DNA of 64,000 bases from an uncultured Verrucomicrobiae bacterium (GCA_963834385.1 CAWIBO010000003.1:1-64000); one strand, 5' to 3'; counted from the stretch's first letter, positions 1 to 10,412 are shown. Made by a program: numbers and translations. The notes: generated by a model from the sequence alone, not told the origin.

Positions 1-1313
1 TCGAAGCCAGCTTGGCAAAGCCGGACTTGAACGCCTCCACCAGCGTGTCGATCTCCGCTTCGGTCATCGGCGTGGAGAACACGCACGCACCCGTGCTGAT
101 GATGCTGCAACCTTCGTTGTAGAGGTGATCGAGCAACGCCTTGAGTCGGCGCGACTCGTCGGGCGTCGGGTAGGCATCGCGGTAATTTCGTGGCGGCGTC
201 TGCTTCATGTGCACCAGGAACATCGAGCCCGCCCCGGTGACGCTCGCGGGCGCGCCCGTCGCGCGGATCGCGTCTTCGATGCCGTTCCTGGCCCGATCGG
301 TCAGCGCGTTCAGGCGCGCCACCGCGGGTCGGTCGAACTTCAGCATCGCCGCCATGCCCGCGGTCATGCTGATCGGGTTGGCCGTGAATGTTCCGGAGTG
401 CGGGAACACGTAGCGGGGCGACTGCGGGTTGAGCACATCCATGACTTCGGCGCGGCCGGCGACGGCGCCAATGGGAAATCCACCGCCGATGATCTTGCCC
501 AGCGCGGTCAGGTCGGGCGTGACGTCGTAGCGCGCTTGCAAGCCGGCGTGCTCGGCCCGGAACGTGATGACTTCATCGAACACCAACAGCACCCCGTGGC
601 GCGCGGACCACTCGCGCAGCGCGGTGACGAACTCCCTATCCGCCGGACACAAGCCGACGCGGTGCGGCATCAGATCGATCAAGACGCACGCGAGGTCGCT
701 TGGCGTGCTCGTCCAGGATCGCCAGCGTGCGCTCGGTGTCGTTGAACGGAAAGACAACGACGTCCTTGAGCGCGGACTCGGGTGTCCCGTGCACCAGCGG
801 AACGCTGCGCGGATGGTCCCTTTCGCCCCAGGTCGCCGGGGTGGAGCCCTGGCTCACCTCGGCGTAGTCGTAGACGCCGTGGTAGGCGCCCTCGGCCTTG
901 GCGATCTTCGGCCGCCCGGTAAAGGCGCGGGCCGCCTTCAGCGCGACCATGATCGCCTCCGTGCCCGAGTTCATGAAGCGCATCTTCTCGAACGAGCGGT
1001 TGCGGCTGCACAAGTGCTCGGCATAGCGCACCTCGATCTCGGTTCCCATCATGAACGCGGTGCCGCGGGTCATCTGCTCCGTCACCGCCTCGATGATCTC
1101 GGGGCAGGCGTGGCCGTGGATCAGGGACGCCATGTTGTTGGAGAAGTCGATGCGCGTGACGCCGTCGAGGTCGGTCACGCGGCAGCCTTTGCCGGACTCG
1201 ACGTAGGTCGGGTGATTCCCCCGCAGGATCGCGTTGCGGCTGACGCCGCCGGGAAGGACTTTGAGGGCCCGCTCGTAGAGGGCGGCGCTGCGTGAAGTGG
1301 TTTGCGTGGTCAT
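1..1313 (-). CDS. Class III PLP aminotransferase (glutamate-1-semialdehyde aminomutase-like / beta-amino acid transaminase-like); frameshift near 700; runs off the left edge
   Basis: ORF 636..1313 has LPGGVSR, DLDG..RIDF, HGHA, FMNSGTEA and EGAYHG motifs. Removing one base at ~700 continues the frame as DLACVLIDLMP..LLVFDEVITFR..PDLTALGKIIGGGFPIGA (PLP lysine) to position 1. Confidence 0.9.
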
Positions 1314-1807: not shown

Positions 1808-2494
1808 TCATTTTCCTCGCCGCCTGCTTTGATCCGTCACGGGGTGCGAAGCAGAGGCGCAGCCGGTGCGCTCCTGCACGTAATCGAAATCGATGCCGGG
1901 GCTCAGTTCGACGAGCTGAAATCCGTTCGGCGTGACTTCGATCACGGCGAGATCGGTGTAGATGCGGTTCACGACGGCCAATCCCGTCAGCGGAAAGGTG
2001 CATTTTTGCACGAGCTTCGCCTCGCCTTCCCGGGTGCAATGCTGGGTGATGACGAAGATCGATTTTACTCCCGCGACCAGGTCCATGGCGCCGCCGACGG
2101 CGGGGATGGCGTCGGGCTCGCCCGTGGACCAGTTGGCCAGATCGCCGTTCTGCGCGACCTGGAGCGCGCCGAGCACGCAAAGATCGAGGTGGCCGCCGCG
2201 GATCATGGCGAAGCTGTCCGCGTGATGAAAGTAGGCGGCGCCCGGCAGCGCCGTCACGCGCTGTTTGCCCGCATTGAGCAGCTCGGGATCGCCTTCGCCG
2301 GGCTCGGGCGCGGGGCCCATGCCGAGCAGGCCATTTTCCGTGTGATAGATGAACGAGCGGCCCGCCGGCACGAACCTGGTGACCAGCTCCGGAATGCCAA
2401 TGCCCAGATTCACATAGGAGCCGTCGGGAATATCCTGCGCCAGGCGCTGCGCCATCTCCTCGCGCGTTCGCCCGATGGCCGCTGGCTTCGTCAT
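1808..2494 (-). CDS. pcaJ: 3-oxoadipate CoA-transferase subunit B
   Basis: YVNLGIGIP, HTENG (catalytic Glu), NAGKQ, FHHADSFAMIRGGHLD, DLANW..IPAVGGAMDL; closely resembles PcaJ. Confidence 0.88.
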   Translation of the reverse strand: MTKPAAIGRTREEMAQRLAQDIPDGSYVNLGIGIPELVTRFVPAGRSFIYHTENGLLGMGPAPEPGEGDPELLNAGKQRVTALPGAAYFHHADSFAMIRGGHLDLCVLGALQVAQNGDLANWSTGEPDAIPAVGGAMDLVAGVKSIFVITQHCTREGEAKLVQKCTFPLTGLAVVNRIYTDLAVIEVTPNGFQLVELSPGIDFDYVQERTGCASASHPVTDQSRRRGK

Positions 2495-3202
2495 GGGTAG
2501 GAGGCTCCTGCGGCGACGAGTTCCGATTCGTGGGCCGGGTTGGCGATGGCGACGACGCGATCCACGAAGATGCCGGGCGTGACGATCGACTCGGGGTCCA
2601 GCTTGCCCGGCTCGACGATCTCGGCGACCTGGACAATCGTGACCTTGCCCGCCATGGCCATCAGCGGGCTGAAGTTCCGCGCCGTCTTGTTGTAAAGGAT
2701 GTTGCCGTGGGTGTCGGCGACCCGCCCTTTGATGAGCGAGAAATCGGCGCGGAGACCGTGCTCAAGCAGATACTTTCGGTCGCCGAATTCCCGGCATTCC
2801 TTGCCTTCCGCCAGCGGCGTTCCCACCGCGGACGGGCGTGTAGAACGCCGGGATGCCCGCTCCGCCGGCGCGGATGCGCTCCGCGAGCGTTCCCTGCGGA
2901 ACCAATTCCAATTTCGTGCGCCCGCTGCGGTAGAGCTCGGGGAAGACGGTCGAGTTGGCGGTGCGCGGAAACGAACAGATGACCTTGGAAACGCGGCCCG
3001 CCTTGAGCAGCGCCGCGAGGCCGACCTGGCCGCTGCCGGTGTTGTTGCTGATCGTCGTCAGATTCGTGGCGCCCTGGTCGATCAGCGCGTGGATGAGCTC
3101 GACCGGACTGCCCGCCTCGCCGAAACCGCCGATCATGATGGTGGCGCCGTCGAAGATGTCCGCGACAGCCTCGGCCGCGCTCGCCACCCGCTTGTCGATC
3201 AT
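2491..3202 (-). CDS. pcaI: 3-oxoadipate CoA-transferase subunit A; frameshift near 2835
   Basis: ORFs 2762..3202 and 2491..2826 join: GGFGEAG, SNN, PcaI-type CSFPR, PQGTLAERIRAGG / GTPLAEGKE, KTARNFSPLMA, IVTPGIFVDRV. Confidence 0.88.
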
Positions 3203-3205
3203 CGA

Positions 3206-4693
3206 TTACGCGTCTGCGAGAGCGGCTTGAAGAGCGCCGAGACTCGACGCCTCTCCGGCCGCCGTGGCGTGACCCGGCGCCTGTCCGGGTTTCGACACAC
3301 GCGCGTAGTGATACAAGCCGGCCTCGTCGAACAGCACGCGGTCCTCGTAGTCGTCGAACCAGAGCGCCTCGGGGTTGCGGCCGACGATGCAGACCTTGCC
3401 GCGGTCGGGGGCGCTGCCGGCGTTCCGAAGAATCTTGAAGATCAGGACGCCATTCTCGCTGCCCGCGAGTCCCGGGATCCCCTCGTTGGTGACCGCCGCC
3501 ACTTCGGTCTTGCCTTTGTAATGCGTGATGGAAAGGCGCGCGTGAGTCTCGACGCCCGACAACCCCTTTTGCGAGGTGTTGAGGATATTCCACGCGGTCT
3601 CGATCGGCACGTTGAACGCCTTGTAGGCGATGATGTCGCGCCCGCAGAAGAAGTAATGGTTCTCGCCGCCGGCGCGCTTGAACTCGCGCTGCAGAATGCG
3701 GAGGGCGTCCGCGTCATCGTTGATGCCCTTCATGATCGGCGCCTGGTTCTCCACGGAGAGCCAGCCGCGCGCGGCCAGGCCCCGCATGCCTTCGCCCGTC
3801 GCGGGGACCCATTGCTTCAAGCCCTGCGCGTCCTCGAGGTAGTTTCCTTCCGCATCCTTGGCGAGGAACTCGTCCGGGTGCTCGAAGTGCAGCATCATGT
3901 GCAGGCCGACCTCCGGGTAGGTCTCGTGGAAGCGATCGAGCATCGAGAGGAAGGTGTGGTCGAAGCGCTGGGGATAGAACGCCATCTCCTTGGTGCCGAT
4001 GCGGATCGATTCGACGCCGGCTTCGGCGAGCGCGCCGAGCCAGGCCGCGATCTTGGAATTGTTCAGCACCATCGGGTCGCCGCCCGAAAGCAGGATCTCG
4101 CGCAGCTTCTCGCGTCCGCTTTCGGGGTGCACGCCGCCGTTCGCCGCGACCTCCGCGTTGTGCTGCTTGATGTAGGGGATGATCTCGGGGATCATCGCCA
4201 GACCCTTCTTTGCGATGGTGCCGTCCTTTCGCTTGATCTGCTTGCGGGCGATCAATTCTTCGCGGTAGCAGAAGCGGCAGTGGGCCGAGCAGGTCGCGAC
4301 GACATACATGAGTCCCATCTCGTACTTGTGCAGCAGGCCCTCGACGGGGCTGTAGTCCATCTGGTTCCCGGGATCCTCCGAGCCCGCAAGGTCCATCGTC
4401 TCGCCGGGGTCGGCCTTGACGATGCGCTGAATGGCGGCGCTGGTCCGGGCCAGGTCGTAGTAATGGCGCGTGATCTTCACCGGCATCCGGGATTCCACGT
4501 CACGCTCGGTGCCCTTGAGCGCTTGCAGGTTCGTCACCTCGTCCCTGGAGTAGAAGTTGAGCATGTCCGCCGGCGCCTTCTCGTGGAAGAAGGGGCCGAG
4601 CCCACTGATAATTTGCCGGTCGTAACGGCCTTCTTCGACGCTTTCGAGAAACTTCTGCTCGCGTGCGGTGGGGACGTGGGGTTGTGGTGTCAT
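3206..4693 (-). CDS. KamA-family radical SAM/PLP 2,3-aminomutase (divergent; substrate probably not lysine)
   Basis: DP..GLLHKY, CSAHCRFCYR (CxxxCxxC), REILLSGGDP, IRIGT, HFEHPDE, NQAPIMKGINDD and C-terminal YKGK (candidate PLP lysine), all collinear with lysine 2,3-aminomutase. Confidence 0.88.
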   Translation of the reverse strand: MTPQPHVPTAREQKFLESVEEGRYDRQIISGLGPFFHEKAPADMLNFYSRDEVTNLQALKGTERDVESRMPVKITRHYYDLARTSAAIQRIVKADPGETMDLAGSEDPGNQMDYSPVEGLLHKYEMGLMYVVATCSAHCRFCYREELIARKQIKRKDGTIAKKGLAMIPEIIPYIKQHNAEVAANGGVHPESGREKLREILLSGGDPMVLNNSKIAAWLGALAEAGVESIRIGTKEMAFYPQRFDHTFLSMLDRFHETYPEVGLHMMLHFEHPDEFLAKDAEGNYLEDAQGLKQWVPATGEGMRGLAARGWLSVENQAPIMKGINDDADALRILQREFKRAGGENHYFFCGRDIIAYKAFNVPIETAWNILNTSQKGLSGVETHARLSITHYKGKTEVAAVTNEGIPGLAGSENGVLIFKILRNAGSAPDRGKVCIVGRNPEALWFDDYEDRVLFDEAGLYHYARVSKPGQAPGHATAAGEASSLGALQAALADA

Positions 4694-4789: not shown

Positions 4790-5029
4790 GCGAGGGACGT
4801 GCGGCGTTGCCTCTGGTGGGCGGGCGCCGGTGGTAGATCGGGGGGTCCCTCGCCGTCTGCGCGGCTCGGGATGACGCGCGCGCGGGGGGCGGTGCCTGCT
4901 CTTGCCTTGTCATCCTGAGCGGAGCGAAGGACCTCGCGAGGGACGTGCGGCGTTGCCTCTGGTGGGCGGGCGTCCGGTGGTAGATCGAGGGGTCCCTCGC
5001 CGTCTGCGCGGCTCGGGATGACGCGCGCG
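4790..5029. repeat. Two ~93-bp direct repeats containing REP-like palindromic units
   Basis: 4790-4882 and 4936-5029 are nearly identical (gcgagggacgtgcggcgttgcc...gctcgggatgacgcgcgcg). The spacer contains gtcatcctgagcggagcgaaggacctc (4909-4935), which is related in inverted orientation to ...ggtccctcgccgtctgcgcggctcgggatgac. Confidence 0.88.
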
Positions 5030-5162
5030 TGGGGGAGGGGTGCGACTTGCGACCGGCTTCCGGTGGAGGAATAGTGGCGGAGGTCGCTTCGCGTCAGACG
5101 TGAAAGCCGCATGAGGTTGTCCCTGCGGCGAGCTTCGCGAAGGGGCCAGAAAACTTACATTT

Positions 5163-6401
5163 ATGGAACCTGTCTACATTCTCGGCGGCGGCCGCACTGA
5201 TTTTAAACGCAACCTCAAAAAAGAGGGCAAAACCATCCGTGACCTGATCGTGGAGGCGGGGCAGGCGGCCCTGAAGGACGCGAAGATCGATCCCTCGCAT
5301 ATCGAAGCGGCCGCGGTGGGCAACTTCAACTCCGGCCAGTTCACCAAACAGCTTCATCTCGGCGCGTTTGTCCCGGAGATTGACCCGGCGCTCCATGGTA
5401 TTCCGACCATGCACACGGAGGCGGCCTGCGCCTCCGGCGCCCTCTCCGTCCTGCTTGGGGCGCAGTGGGTCATGGGCGGCTTCCACGACGCCGTGCTCGT
5501 CGTCGGCGCGGAACAGCAGAAAACGATGTCGTCCAAGGATGGCTCGGATGTGCTGGGAGCGGCGGCGGATTATCACGTCGAGCAGCCCGAATACGGCGAC
5601 TTTATGTTTCCGAAACTGTTCGGACGCATCGCGCAGATCTACATCGAGGAATACGGGGCTTCGGAGAAGGAACTTTCCTGGGTGGCTTACAAAAATTACG
5701 CGCATGCGCGGTTGAACCCGATGGCGCAAATGCGCGATGCGGATCTGACCTACGATTCCGCTTCCCAGGTGTCGGATAAAAACCCGAGCGTGGCGCCGCC
5801 GTTGAAAGTGTCGGATTGCTCGCAGATCACCGATGGCGGCGCGGCCCTCGTCCTCGTCTCAGGCAAATACATGGACAAGATGGGCCTCGATAAATCGAAG
5901 CACCCACGTCTCCTCGGCTTCGGCAGCTCGACTGATTATTTGGCGCTGGAGAAGAAAGACGCGCCGACGTTTTCGACTGCAAAAAAGGCAGCGGAAAAGG
6001 CATTCGGAATGGCAAATCTCACGCCAAAAGAGATGCATGGCGTCGAGGTGCACGATTGCTTTTCCATCACGGAAATCTGCGCCTACGAGATCCTCGGTCT
6101 GGCCGAGCGCGGCAAGGGCGCCGAGCTGGCGAAGAGCGGCGCGACCGCGCTCCCGCAGGTGCGGGGCGAGCACATCAAAGGCAAGGTCGGCTGGGAAATC
6201 CCGGTGAACGTGGGCGGCGGCCTGATTGGCGACGGTCATCCGGTCGGAGCGACCGGCGTGCGGCAGGTTTACGAGGCCTACCAGCAGCTCACCGGACAAG
6301 GTGGGAAGCGGCAGATTGAAGGCTGCCAGCGTTACCTGACCTTTAACATGGGCGGCAGCCTGACCACGGCCGTGGCCATGGTCTGGGGCGCGGGCGAGTA
6401 G
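5163..6401 (+). CDS. Thiolase, SCP2/SCP-x type (acetyl-CoA acyltransferase)
   Basis: EAACASG (catalytic Cys), CSQITDGGAA, EVHDCF and GHPVGATG motifs. Confidence 0.9.
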   Translation: MEPVYILGGGRTDFKRNLKKEGKTIRDLIVEAGQAALKDAKIDPSHIEAAAVGNFNSGQFTKQLHLGAFVPEIDPALHGIPTMHTEAACASGALSVLLGAQWVMGGFHDAVLVVGAEQQKTMSSKDGSDVLGAAADYHVEQPEYGDFMFPKLFGRIAQIYIEEYGASEKELSWVAYKNYAHARLNPMAQMRDADLTYDSASQVSDKNPSVAPPLKVSDCSQITDGGAALVLVSGKYMDKMGLDKSKHPRLLGFGSSTDYLALEKKDAPTFSTAKKAAEKAFGMANLTPKEMHGVEVHDCFSITEICAYEILGLAERGKGAELAKSGATALPQVRGEHIKGKVGWEIPVNVGGGLIGDGHPVGATGVRQVYEAYQQLTGQGGKRQIEGCQRYLTFNMGGSLTTAVAMVWGAGE

Positions 6402-7918: not shown

Positions 7919-10412
7919 ATGATCCTTGATTCATTCCGCCAGGACGTTCGCGTCGGCTTCCGCGTCCTCTTCAAAGAAAAAGCGTTTTGCATCCTTGCCG
8001 TGACGGTGCTGGCCCTCGGCATCTGCGGCGTGACCACGCAGTTCACGGTGGTGAACGCCTTCCTGCTGCGCGGCTTTTCGTTTCCGAACCCGCACGAGCT
8101 GATGAATGTCGGCCTGCTCGATCCGCAGGCGAACCAGAACCAGAACAACGGCGGCCTCGGGTTCATCCCCACGGCGCAGGATTACGAAGACCTGCGGGAG
8201 GGTCAGAAATCGTTCGCGCTCATCGCGGGTTATCTCAACGGCTCGACCATCAACGTTACCCACGAAAACTCGCCCCAGCGTTACACCGGCGGCTACGTGA
8301 CGGAGGACTTTTTCAAGATCATCGGGGTCAACCCGATCCTGGGCCGCGACTTCACCGCGGCGGACAACCGGCAGGGCGCGGAGAAGGTGGCGCTTGCTCG
8401 GCCACGAGATCTGGCAGCGGGACTTCGGCGGCGACCCGGGCATCGTGGGGCAGGCCATCCGGATCAATGGGAAGGCGGCCACGATCATCGGGGTGATGCC
8501 GAAAGGGTTCAAGTTCCCGGTGTCGGAGCAGCTTTGGGTTCCCTATTACAATGAGTTCCCGCTAAAGCCGCGCGAGGATCCGTCCGCCAACGGCATGGCC
8601 ATCATGGGCCGGCTGAAGCCGGGCGTTTCGATTGACCAGGCGAACGCGGAGTTTATTGGCCTGGCCCGGCGCCTGGCGGAGGAATTTCCGAAGACGAACG
8701 GGCAACTGACGATGGCGAGCGTGCAGCCGCTGATCAACAACTTCGCCGGCCCGCAGTTGCGGCAGACGGTCTACGCCATGCTCGGCGCGGTCATCATCGT
8801 GCTGCTCATCGCCTGCGTGAACGTGATGAACATGCAGTTCGGGCGGGCGGCGCTGCGGGCGAAGGAACTGGCCATCCGGGGGGCGCTCGGGGCCTCGCGC
8901 TGGCGCATCGTCCGCCAGATGCTGACCGAGAGTTTTCTGGTGGCGGCGATGGGCGCGGTGGTGGGAGTGATGATGGCCTACTGGGCGGTCGAACTGTTGA
9001 GCCGTTCGCTCAAGGCGCTTCCTTTTCCTTTGCCCTACTGGGTTTCGTTTGAGATCGACGGAAGCGTGCTCCTCGTGACCGTGGGCGTGACCCTGCTGGC
9101 GACGCTGGTCTCCGGCTTTATCCCGGCCTACCTGAGCGCGCGGGCGAACCCGGCCGAAGTGATGAAGGAAGGGGGACGCGGGAACAGCAGCCGGCTGGTC
9201 AACGTCATCACCCGCGTCCTGGTGGTGGCGCAGATTGCGCTGACGGCGGCACTCCTCATCGCGGCGACCCTGCAGGTGAAGTCGGTCCGCAACCAGGTGA
9301 CCCTGGATTACGGCTATGACGAGGAGGCGGTCTACGCCGCGCGCATGGGATTAATGGAGGGCGACTATCCCGGGGACGAAGCGCGGAACCAATTTTACAT
9401 CAAGACCCTGCGTCATCTCCGGAACGATCCGCAATTTGAGAAAGCGGCCCTGAGCGGGCGGTTCCGGATGACGTTTGGCGGCTTTGGACAGTATGAGGTG
9501 GATGGTCAGACCTATGTCACCGATCGGGACCGGCCCCGGGGCAACTTCGAGTTCGTCTCCGACGGCTACTTCGACACCCTCGGACTGAAGATCCTGCAGG
9601 GGCGCGATTTCACGATTGATGACAGCGATGCGCGGCAGCCGGTCGCGATTGTAAACGCCGGGTTCGCCCGCAGATATTTCGGGAACGAAAGCCCGCTGGG
9701 GCGGCGGGTGCGTGTTTTCAATCCGGCCTCTCCCCAGCCGTGGCGGACAATCGTGGGCGTGGTGCCCGACACCCAGATGCAGGGACCATTCAACCAGCAG
9801 ACCGACAATACCGGATTCTATATTCCGATTCTGGGGACGCCGCCCGCCCCGCAGTTCTGCACCATTGTGGTGAAACCGCGGCCGGGCGTCCGCGCGGAAA
9901 CCCTGGGCCCGGTCCTGGGCCAGGCGGTGGCGCAGCTCGATTCGAACCTGCCTCTTTATTTCGGCGGGACGCCGGAGAAGCTGCACGACGAGATCCTCGG
10001 GGTGAACCGGGTGACCGCGACGCTTTTCACCATCTTTGGCATCATCGCCTTTGTTCTCTCCGCGGTCGGGCTTTACGGGGTGATGAGTTTCTCGGTGAAC
10101 CAGCGCACGCAGGAGATTGGAATTCGCATGGCGTTGGGCGCGGATTCATCCCGTATTTTCCGCATGGTCATGACCCAGGGGGCATGGCAGCTGGGGATCG
10201 GCCTGGCGATCGGGGCCAGTGGCATCGCGCTGCTGCTCCGTCTGGCGGGGGAGAATGTGCTGCAGACCTTTCTTTACGAGGTCAACGCGCACGATCCGGC
10301 GATTTACATTGCCGTCGGCGCCCTGCTGACCGCGGTGGCGGCCATTTCCTGCTTTGTCCCGGCGCGCCGGGCCACCCGGGTGAATCCGATGGTGGCGTTA
10401 CGGGCGGAGTAG
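7919..10412 (+). CDS. Duplicated MacB/FtsX-type ABC permease (ADOP family); frameshift near 8395
   Basis: [14 protein letters not shown]-terminus, [21 protein letters not shown], and a second [42 protein letters not shown]. Confidence 0.9.

Follow-up and report, generated by a model that had tools for sequence, protein, structure and literature searches.

A putative 2-aminoadipate 2,3-aminomutase heading a 3-oxoacid CoA-transferase operon in soil Verrucomicrobiota and other phyla: a proposed route of lysine degradation

Introduction

To our knowledge, only a few substrates (lysine, glutamate, and arginine) have been established for the radical SAM 2,3-aminomutases, and an archaeal glutamate 2,3-aminomutase was reportedly described by Tunckanat in 2022. 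The locus described here raises the question of which amino acid is used by a divergent member of this family, encoded in a stretch of 64,000 nucleotides from an uncultured Verrucomicrobiae bacterium (GCA_963834385.1 CAWIBO010000003.1:1-64000, hereafter referred to as the window, to which coordinates refer unless a contig or locus is named). A first-pass annotation of this sequence had claimed that the substrate pocket of the enzyme is charge-reversed with respect to lysine 2,3-aminomutase (LAM), pointing to a dicarboxylic amino acid, that it differs from the pocket of the glutamate enzyme, and that the protein may belong to a separate subfamily.

A divergent KamA-type protein

The open reading frame runs exactly from position 4693 to 3206 on the minus strand (3206..4693) and its 495-aa product is proposed, from the ORF, family profiles, PDB match, structural model and phylogeny, to be a KamA-like radical SAM/PLP 2,3-aminomutase with 2-aminoadipate as its putative substrate. 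A Pfam search with this product returned no family at E 0.001, and the first match in the Atlas was an unnamed 509-member cluster that added nothing on its identity. All six KamA-type NCBIfam models matched it, each far below its cut-off: TIGR00238 (KamA family; 84.9 bits, cut-off 199.2), TIGR04468 (arginine 2,3-aminomutase; 81.5, cut-off 600), TIGR04368 (glutamate 2,3-aminomutase; 73.4, cut-off 650), the AblA-like model (73.1, cut-off 396), TIGR03821 (EpmB; 72.6, cut-off 369.3) and TIGR03820 (lysine 2,3-aminomutase; 66.4, cut-off 525.4). The neighboring genes encode a CoA-transferase and not efp, the gene context of EpmB.

The sole significant PDB sequence match was LAM from Clostridium subterminale (2A5H). 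An AlphaFold2 model (pLDDT 93, built from 115 sequences) superposed on 2A5H with a Z score of 33.9 and an rmsd of 2.3 Å over 313 residues at 23% identity, the runner-up structure having a Z score of 13.8, and Foldseek agreed on 2A5H; the predicted fold is therefore that of a KamA-type radical SAM/PLP enzyme. The CxxxCxxC motif of the [4Fe-4S] cluster (Cys135, Cys139 and Cys142; invariant in a 59-sequence alignment) and the following Arg144 are encoded at 4262..4291 on the minus strand. Arg144 corresponds in the alignments to Arg134 of LAM, which we take to bind the alpha-carboxylate; the roles of the LAM residues used in this mapping are those known from crystal structures.

The substrate pocket

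In the phmmer search, a weak segment matched HYFFCGRDIIAYKAF of the aminomutase to PYYIYQCDLSLGLEHF of 2A5H and was free of gaps. The same register was obtained with a 28-sequence profile against residues 26-322 of 2A5H (E 7.9e-66, high posterior) and in a MAFFT L-INS-i alignment with annotated AblA, BlsG, EpmB and AblA-like proteins, so that the arginine placed by the first-pass annotation at the position of Asp293 was found there by all three methods. This residue is Arg352 (codon 3638..3640, minus strand). Because the structural superposition gives no residue pairs, the register was taken from the alignments of sequences and profile, and the numbering through Asp330 and Lys337 was taken from the canonical KamA paralogue of the same genome aligned to 2A5H. 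The annotation had named the adjacent Asp of the GRD motif (Asp353) as the competing candidate for position 293. Asp353 corresponds instead to Leu294 in the profile and MAFFT alignments, and the anchors on both sides of Arg352 are in register (Tyr347=Tyr288, Phe360=Phe301 and Pro363=Pro304). Moreover, Arg352 is conserved in 45 of 51 rows that are more distant or lack the HYFFCGRD motif, position 353 being variable in these (P in 20, E in 14, D in 8), which also excludes Asp353. The HYFFCGRD motif itself was present in 151 of 161 loci, GGR[ND] in seven, and three gave no match.

The second lysine-binding aspartate is likewise absent, as the annotation had stated: Thr390 occupies the Asp330 position, and the segment from Thr390 to Lys395, the equivalent of the PLP lysine Lys337, is encoded at 3509..3526 (minus strand). 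This PLP loop was described in the annotation as replaced; it is indeed altered, but by being two residues shorter than in LAM, as in annotated BlsG (VLTTK--IGK; TIGR04468), and it is therefore compatible with an aminomutase. BlsG also has Thr at position 330, and differs in keeping Asp293. Both lysines of the YKGK motif had been put forward as targets for mutation, and only one of these stands as a catalytic candidate: Lys393 varies among homologues and is ruled out, so Lys395 is the only PLP lysine.

The other LAM residues with equivalents in the MAFFT alignment are Ser169 (Ser203), Asp172 (Asp206), Arg198 (Arg231), His230 (His269) and Gln258 (Gln317), which, with the fold, the CxxxCxxC motif, Arg134 and Lys337, are common to both enzymes. 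In contrast to LAM, the enzyme described here has Lys235 in place of Arg202, three insertions and a different C-terminus, and it lacks the equivalent of Cys268 and the C-terminal cysteines, which have a zinc role in LAM. The annotation had noted the change in the C-terminal region; the loss of all these cysteines is real, but it does not serve as a subfamily marker, since an annotated Cytobacillus AblA lacks them too. The subfamily has features of its own, namely an invariant basic insertion (Arg155, Lys162 and Lys163) and the replacement of QC by CG just before Arg352.

With both lysine-binding aspartates replaced, one of them by an arginine, the alignments support a charge-reversed pocket. 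Such a pocket points to an acidic substrate, not to the length of its chain. The part played by these aspartates in specificity is supported by the SFLD description of the glutamate enzyme (below) and by the D331G variant, which shifts B. subtilis LAM towards alanine according to the available part of PMC9850924.

Phylogeny and the glutamate alternative

The claim that the pocket is unlike that of the glutamate enzyme held only in part. Clostridial glutamate 2,3-aminomutase (TIGR04368) likewise has the KamA fold and both aspartates replaced, one of them by a basic residue, but the SFLD description, in the accessible text of PMC3965090, gives Lys and Asn where Arg and Thr are found here; the comparison was made by this description and by the TIGR04368 score. 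The claim does not extend to an IdnL4-like putative glutamate aminomutase (locus L190, a label inferred from its gene content), which shares Arg293-Asp294, Ser/Thr330, Lys202 and a shortened xxGK loop with the protein described here and differs in its identity (28%), its separate clade and its biosynthetic PKS context.

A quick tree was built from 54 rows, none of them a true glutamate aminomutase of clostridial or archaeal origin; in it, our protein fell in a 15-row clade (SH-aLRT 99) within a 34-row group (SH-aLRT 100). The LAM/EpmB/BlsG/AblA-like group (SH-aLRT 100) excluded it, and the IdnL4-like group (SH-aLRT 100) was also apart. The alignment and phylogeny with KamA, EpmB and BlsG that had been proposed as a check thus place it away from the true lysine aminomutases and, together with NCBIfam scores of 66–85 bits against cut-offs of 199–650, support the suggestion of a separate subfamily.

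The main rival explanation is an Arg293-type glutamate 2,3-aminomutase, with glutamate converted to beta-glutamate, 3-oxoglutarate and 3-oxoglutaryl-CoA, and this last cleaved to malonyl-CoA and acetyl-CoA. It draws on the IdnL4-like protein, with the same Arg-Asp pair and Ser330, whose PKS cluster also has a PLP enzyme, an adenylation enzyme and a proline-iminopeptidase-family hydrolase, and on a Methanospirillum homologue that is also Arg293/Ser330. The part of PMC11284099 that could be consulted describes IdnL4 as probably a glutamate 2,3-aminomutase; by genetic evidence it is needed for a starter unit derived from beta-glutamate, and no activity was shown in vitro. However, our protein is only 28% identical to the IdnL4-like protein, sits on a separate long branch and scores 73 bits against the TIGR04368 cut-off of 650. 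We consider this explanation unlikely, also in view of the downstream enzymes and neighboring genes described below. Arg352 cannot by itself separate glutamate from aminoadipate, because the IdnL4-like enzyme and many homologues share Arg293 with Ser or Thr at 330; this combination was also found in homologues from rhizobial plasmids, Paenibacillus and Methanospirillum and in a protein of a Streptomyces PKS cluster similar in gene content to the starter-unit genes of incednine. Its wide distribution therefore supports an acidic side chain and weakens the case against glutamate. Thousands of proteins with the label lysine 2,3-aminomutase have Arg at the Asp293 position, and this label is probably wrong.

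The substrate could still be lysine or a lysine-derived semialdehyde, or the enzyme could catalyze other PLP-radical chemistry. Six wider-clade homologues (P0133, P0135, P0141, P0143, P0144 and P0169) keep Arg293 and have Gln or Val in place of the Arg134 equivalent (Arg144 here), a change that points to substrates lacking a free alpha-carboxylate and to a functionally diverse clade, and the lysine 6-transaminase and piperideine-6-carboxylate dehydrogenase encoded near the operon (see below) could act after a beta-lysine step. Both lysine-binding aspartates are nevertheless absent, with Arg at one of the positions, and the source genome has a separate canonical KamA on contig C2, so we regard this explanation as very unlikely. 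The C2 gene (655049-656122; L081-L084), which occurs as three frameshifted pieces, encodes the YQCD and VIDAPGGGGK motifs and serves as an internal control for a lysine-type pocket.

Several other Arg293-type homologues were seen in distinct contexts. In a distant Arg293 clade (P0154, P0167, P0172, P0176 and P0178), a C-terminal extension with the pattern CxxxxxCxxC...C resembles a 2Fe-2S ferredoxin by eye, and a Pfam search found nothing; a 7Fe-type ferredoxin gene lies beside other members in 12 of the 80 metagenome loci listed. On rhizobial plasmids, Arg293-type KamA homologues are flanked by ATP-grasp genes in L173 and L193, the former also holding ectB, asd and a second KamA of the Asp293 type; these loci are probably small-peptide biosynthesis clusters. 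On a plasmid of Amycolatopsis sp. AA4 (L191), the gene for an IdnL4-like aminomutase has neighbors encoding a CoA transferase, CoA-ester lyases and MaoC dehydratases, and this may be a further catabolic cluster that has not been described. At 9512-10924 of L092, a homologue with 49% identity (FQCR, MSTEQGK) is found on its own, without the operon described below, between genes that by eye are aminoacyl-tRNA synthetase-like.

Operon organization and conservation

The aminomutase gene heads an operon and is followed, on the same strand, by genes for CoA-transferase subunits A and B, a PD-(D/E)XK protein and a class III aminotransferase. Subunit A of the 3-oxoacid CoA-transferase (2491..3202, minus strand) is of the PcaI type with a CSFPR motif, its ORF being split by an extra base near 2837, and subunit B (1808..2494, minus strand) is of the PcaJ type (TIGR02428, 291 bits, cut-off 243.55), its end altered by an extra base near 1862. 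The beta-transaminase-like class III PLP aminotransferase (1..1313, minus strand) reaches the contig end and has an extra base near 701. These single bases, which disturb the three ORFs relative to homologues, are absent from related soil-run contigs (the base near 701 in all four runs compared) and are therefore probably assembly errors. The PD-(D/E)XK gene (PF13366; 1310..1774, minus strand) has a GC content of 53%, against 64–66%, was found in five of the 80 GTDB loci listed, and is a passenger rather than part of the pathway. In relatives, different inserts, the longest of about 6.7 kb, occur between pcaI, pcaJ and the transaminase gene, so that the operon is a hotspot for insertion in this family.

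A divergent, non-PcaF, PRK06289-like thiolase is encoded at 5163..6401 on the plus strand; its proximity to the operon is restricted to Verrucomicrobiota-type loci, and it is probably a resident neighbor rather than a pathway member. Between this gene and the aminomutase, positions 4790-5035 contain two copies of a repeat of about 100 bp, about 147 bp apart, which looks like an intergenic repeat element.

Conservation was assessed in the best 80 of 446 relatives from a GTDB scan and the best 80 of 99 from a metagenome scan, operon counts being limited to loci whose downstream sequence extends for 3.5 kb or more; many of these loci are kin and some are near-duplicates. On this basis, PcaI was encoded in 57/57 GTDB loci, PcaJ in 56/57, the transaminase in 56/57 and a PcaF-like thiolase in 33/57, the corresponding metagenome counts being 26/34, 26/34, 27/34 and 12/34. 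Among 61 relatives, seven genomes had the aminomutase; the transaminase (>90% identity) was found in six of these and, outside them, as a single fragment, whereas the thiolase (at least 95%) was found in five of the seven and in no other genome. No partner genes were seen at the seven loci with the drifted GGR[ND] motif, two of which have less than 1.2 kb downstream, and locus L115 had none of the four partner genes. An RpiR regulator gene lies upstream in Phycisphaerales loci (26/57) and was not found in the source genome by tblastn. Contigs from RNA libraries of three soil studies cover operon genes; as the comparison had no silent control stretch, this coverage is not read as expression.

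Partner enzymes

The subunit A motif CS[FY]P[RK] was present in all 133 segments found. In a quick tree of 17 rows, with references labeled by annotated context and not by assay, subunit A grouped with PcaI of the Sphingobium and Acinetobacter cat/pca operons and with annotated pcaI of R. etli (SH-aLRT 95), apart from the Sco/AtoD types, of which the source genome has a separate copy. The nearest solved structures to the class III transaminase were 6K8H, which we take to act on beta-amino acids, and ForI; the matches listed also included the beta-transaminases 4AO9 and 2YKU. Arg23 and Arg207 of ForI, as given in the available portion of PMC6927412, have conserved equivalents in the operon's transaminase. 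A plasmid of Mesorhizobium sp. 113-3-3 carries genes for the aminomutase, a ferredoxin, the transaminase and, instead of PcaIJ, a glutaconate-CoA-transferase-like enzyme, of a family that presumably also holds 3-oxoadipate transferases.

The PcaF-like thiolase of the source lineage has TIGR02430 (PcaF) as its best family, with 568–572 bits against a cut-off of 597, whereas the partner thiolases in L110 and L131 exceed this equivalog cut-off (682 and 667). The pcaI genes of the latter two loci are 55% and 66% identical, respectively, and the gene order and identity show that pcaI was recruited separately there.

These partners bear on the chain length of the substrate. Being of 3-oxoadipate types, they argue against glutamate. 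Another acidic amino acid, such as 2-aminopimelate or a longer or substituted dicarboxylate, might pass through the same beta-oxo-acid end steps, and we judge this quite unlikely. The source-lineage thiolase, below the PcaF cut-off and equally close to 8GQH, to 1ULQ and to the beta-ketoadipyl-CoA thiolase 6PCA, would fit such a substrate, as would the subfamily-specific insertion and the CG-for-QC swap, but true PcaF equivalogs partner the aminomutase in L110 and L131, and supply genes were seen nearby for 2-aminoadipate only.

The operon thus shares the PcaI clade and motif and a PcaF-like or true PcaF thiolase with the end steps of the beta-ketoadipate pathway. It differs in that no ring-cleavage genes were found with it, and it would be fed by the aminomutase and the transaminase. 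Neither an intradiol dioxygenase nor a PcaD above cut-off was found in the source genome (89.6% complete), and no pcaH was found in five other aminomutase carriers.

Lysine catabolism genes

The start of contig C1 of the source genome carries a PcaF-like gene (1027-2231), a gene for piperideine-6-carboxylate dehydrogenase (pcd; 8495-10039) and lat, encoding lysine 6-transaminase (TIGR03251, 585.5 bits, cut-off 520.8). This gene order is continuous with the operon in locus L166, so the ends of the operon contig and C1 probably join. Genes of lysine catabolism (lat, pcd and a saccharopine-dehydrogenase-family gene) adjoin the operon in three lineages, which also argues against glutamate: lat-pcd lies upstream of the aminomutase and co-oriented with it in L023 (where pcd ends 258 bp before it), L028, L063 and L169; a saccharopine-dehydrogenase-family gene and pcd face or abut the operon in L117; and pcd faces the transaminase gene across 225 bp in G521. 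Such adjacency concerns a minority of loci, pcd being within the fetched flanks in 6/171 and lat in 5/171.

At the genome level, lat was present in 33 of 36 family members (a tally including two genomes flagged unpublished) and, being nearly universal in the family, says little. In a 401-genome sample of the phylum, 10 of the 11 genomes with the aminomutase had pcd, as did 154 of the other 390, with a Fisher p of 0.0008 that overstates the association because kin are not independent. Mutual exclusion with an acyl-CoA dehydrogenase gene (identified by its Pfam label only), which we presume to encode glutaryl-CoA dehydrogenase, was not seen: it occurs in three of seven carriers, against 22 of 36 family members overall, and the usual route may therefore coexist. 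A link to HglS (PF07063) showed no pattern, this gene being found in one of five carriers and not in the source genome. The best plasmid match to the operon PcaI (66%), on pTM2 of Tistrella mobilis (L091), has pcd and genes for a DUF1338 (HglS) protein and an aminotransferase as neighbors; the 12.7 kb fetched held no aminomutase, making this another link between pcaIJ and lysine catabolism.

All steps are reversible in principle, and the enzymes could instead build 3-oxoadipate from succinyl-CoA and acetyl-CoA, and then 3-aminoadipate as a solute or 2-aminoadipate for lysine synthesis. The beta-amino acids made by this enzyme class do serve as osmolytes, according to the accessible text of bioRxiv 2025.11.21.689712. 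Nevertheless, the source genome has lysA above cut-off, none of five carriers has LysX above cut-off, and the neighbors lat and pcd are degradative. The lysA and LysX results favor the degradative direction, and we hold the building direction to be the least probable of the alternatives.

Proposed pathway

From the fold, residues, operon, family labels and co-location observed here, we infer the substrates and the direction of the degradative route as follows. Tracing back from 3-oxoadipate through a transamination and a 2,3-amino shift leads to 2-aminoadipate, which matches the basic pocket and the lat and pcd neighbors; the gene context thus independently favors aminoadipate, which the first-pass annotation had named as a candidate for docking. 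It is likely that the aminomutase acts on L-2-aminoadipate, in a route leading to 3-aminoadipate, 3-oxoadipate and, finally, succinyl-CoA and acetyl-CoA. Lysine 6-aminotransferase and piperideine-6-carboxylate dehydrogenase would supply 2-aminoadipate from lysine. By analogy with LAM, this substrate would form an aldimine with the PLP released from Lys395, its alpha-carboxylate held by Arg144 and its distal carboxylate by Arg352, with Thr390 replacing the second Asp; the 5'-deoxyadenosyl radical would take the C3 hydrogen and the imine would migrate from C2 to C3, giving 3-aminoadipate. The class III transaminase would then yield 3-oxoadipate, PcaIJ would convert this to 3-oxoadipyl-CoA, and the PcaF-like thiolase would cleave the latter to succinyl-CoA and acetyl-CoA.

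Such a route would keep all six carbons and yield a C4 unit, unlike the 2-oxoadipate/glutaryl-CoA route. [quoted passage not shown] However, the substrate and enzymes differ and the operon has no lysine 5,6-aminomutase step. The matches listed in our literature search, which lay mostly outside subscription papers, included no aminoadipate aminomutase and no biological catabolism of 3-aminoadipate, and a prior description is possible; a Mycetohabitans paper (PMC9802438) concerns, in its available text, a phenylalanine aminomutase of another class and has no bearing on the KamA-type family.

Implications

A cultured carrier exists, with the aminomutase on the plasmid of Mesorhizobium sp. 113-3-3. 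In work on lysine-to-adipate engineering, the removal of the amino group from 2-aminoadipate is described as a missing step in the available part of PMC7241714. Our reading of the aminomutase bears on such engineering and, if true, would mean that lysine and 3-oxoadipate are connected by enzymes found in nature. With an enzyme for aminoadipate, the 2,3-aminomutases would gain a reaction, and lysine catabolism would be joined by a route to the end steps of the beta-ketoadipate pathway. As these steps usually count as a sign that aromatic compounds are degraded, pcaIJF annotations in these genomes would mislead, and the presence of orphan pcaIJF in bacteria without ring-cleavage genes would be explained. 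A little more cautiously, we think it likely that an undescribed 2-aminoadipate 2,3-aminomutase is the defining enzyme of a new route for lysine degradation, which is spread as a module through soil Verrucomicrobiota, the Phycisphaerales and further phyla.
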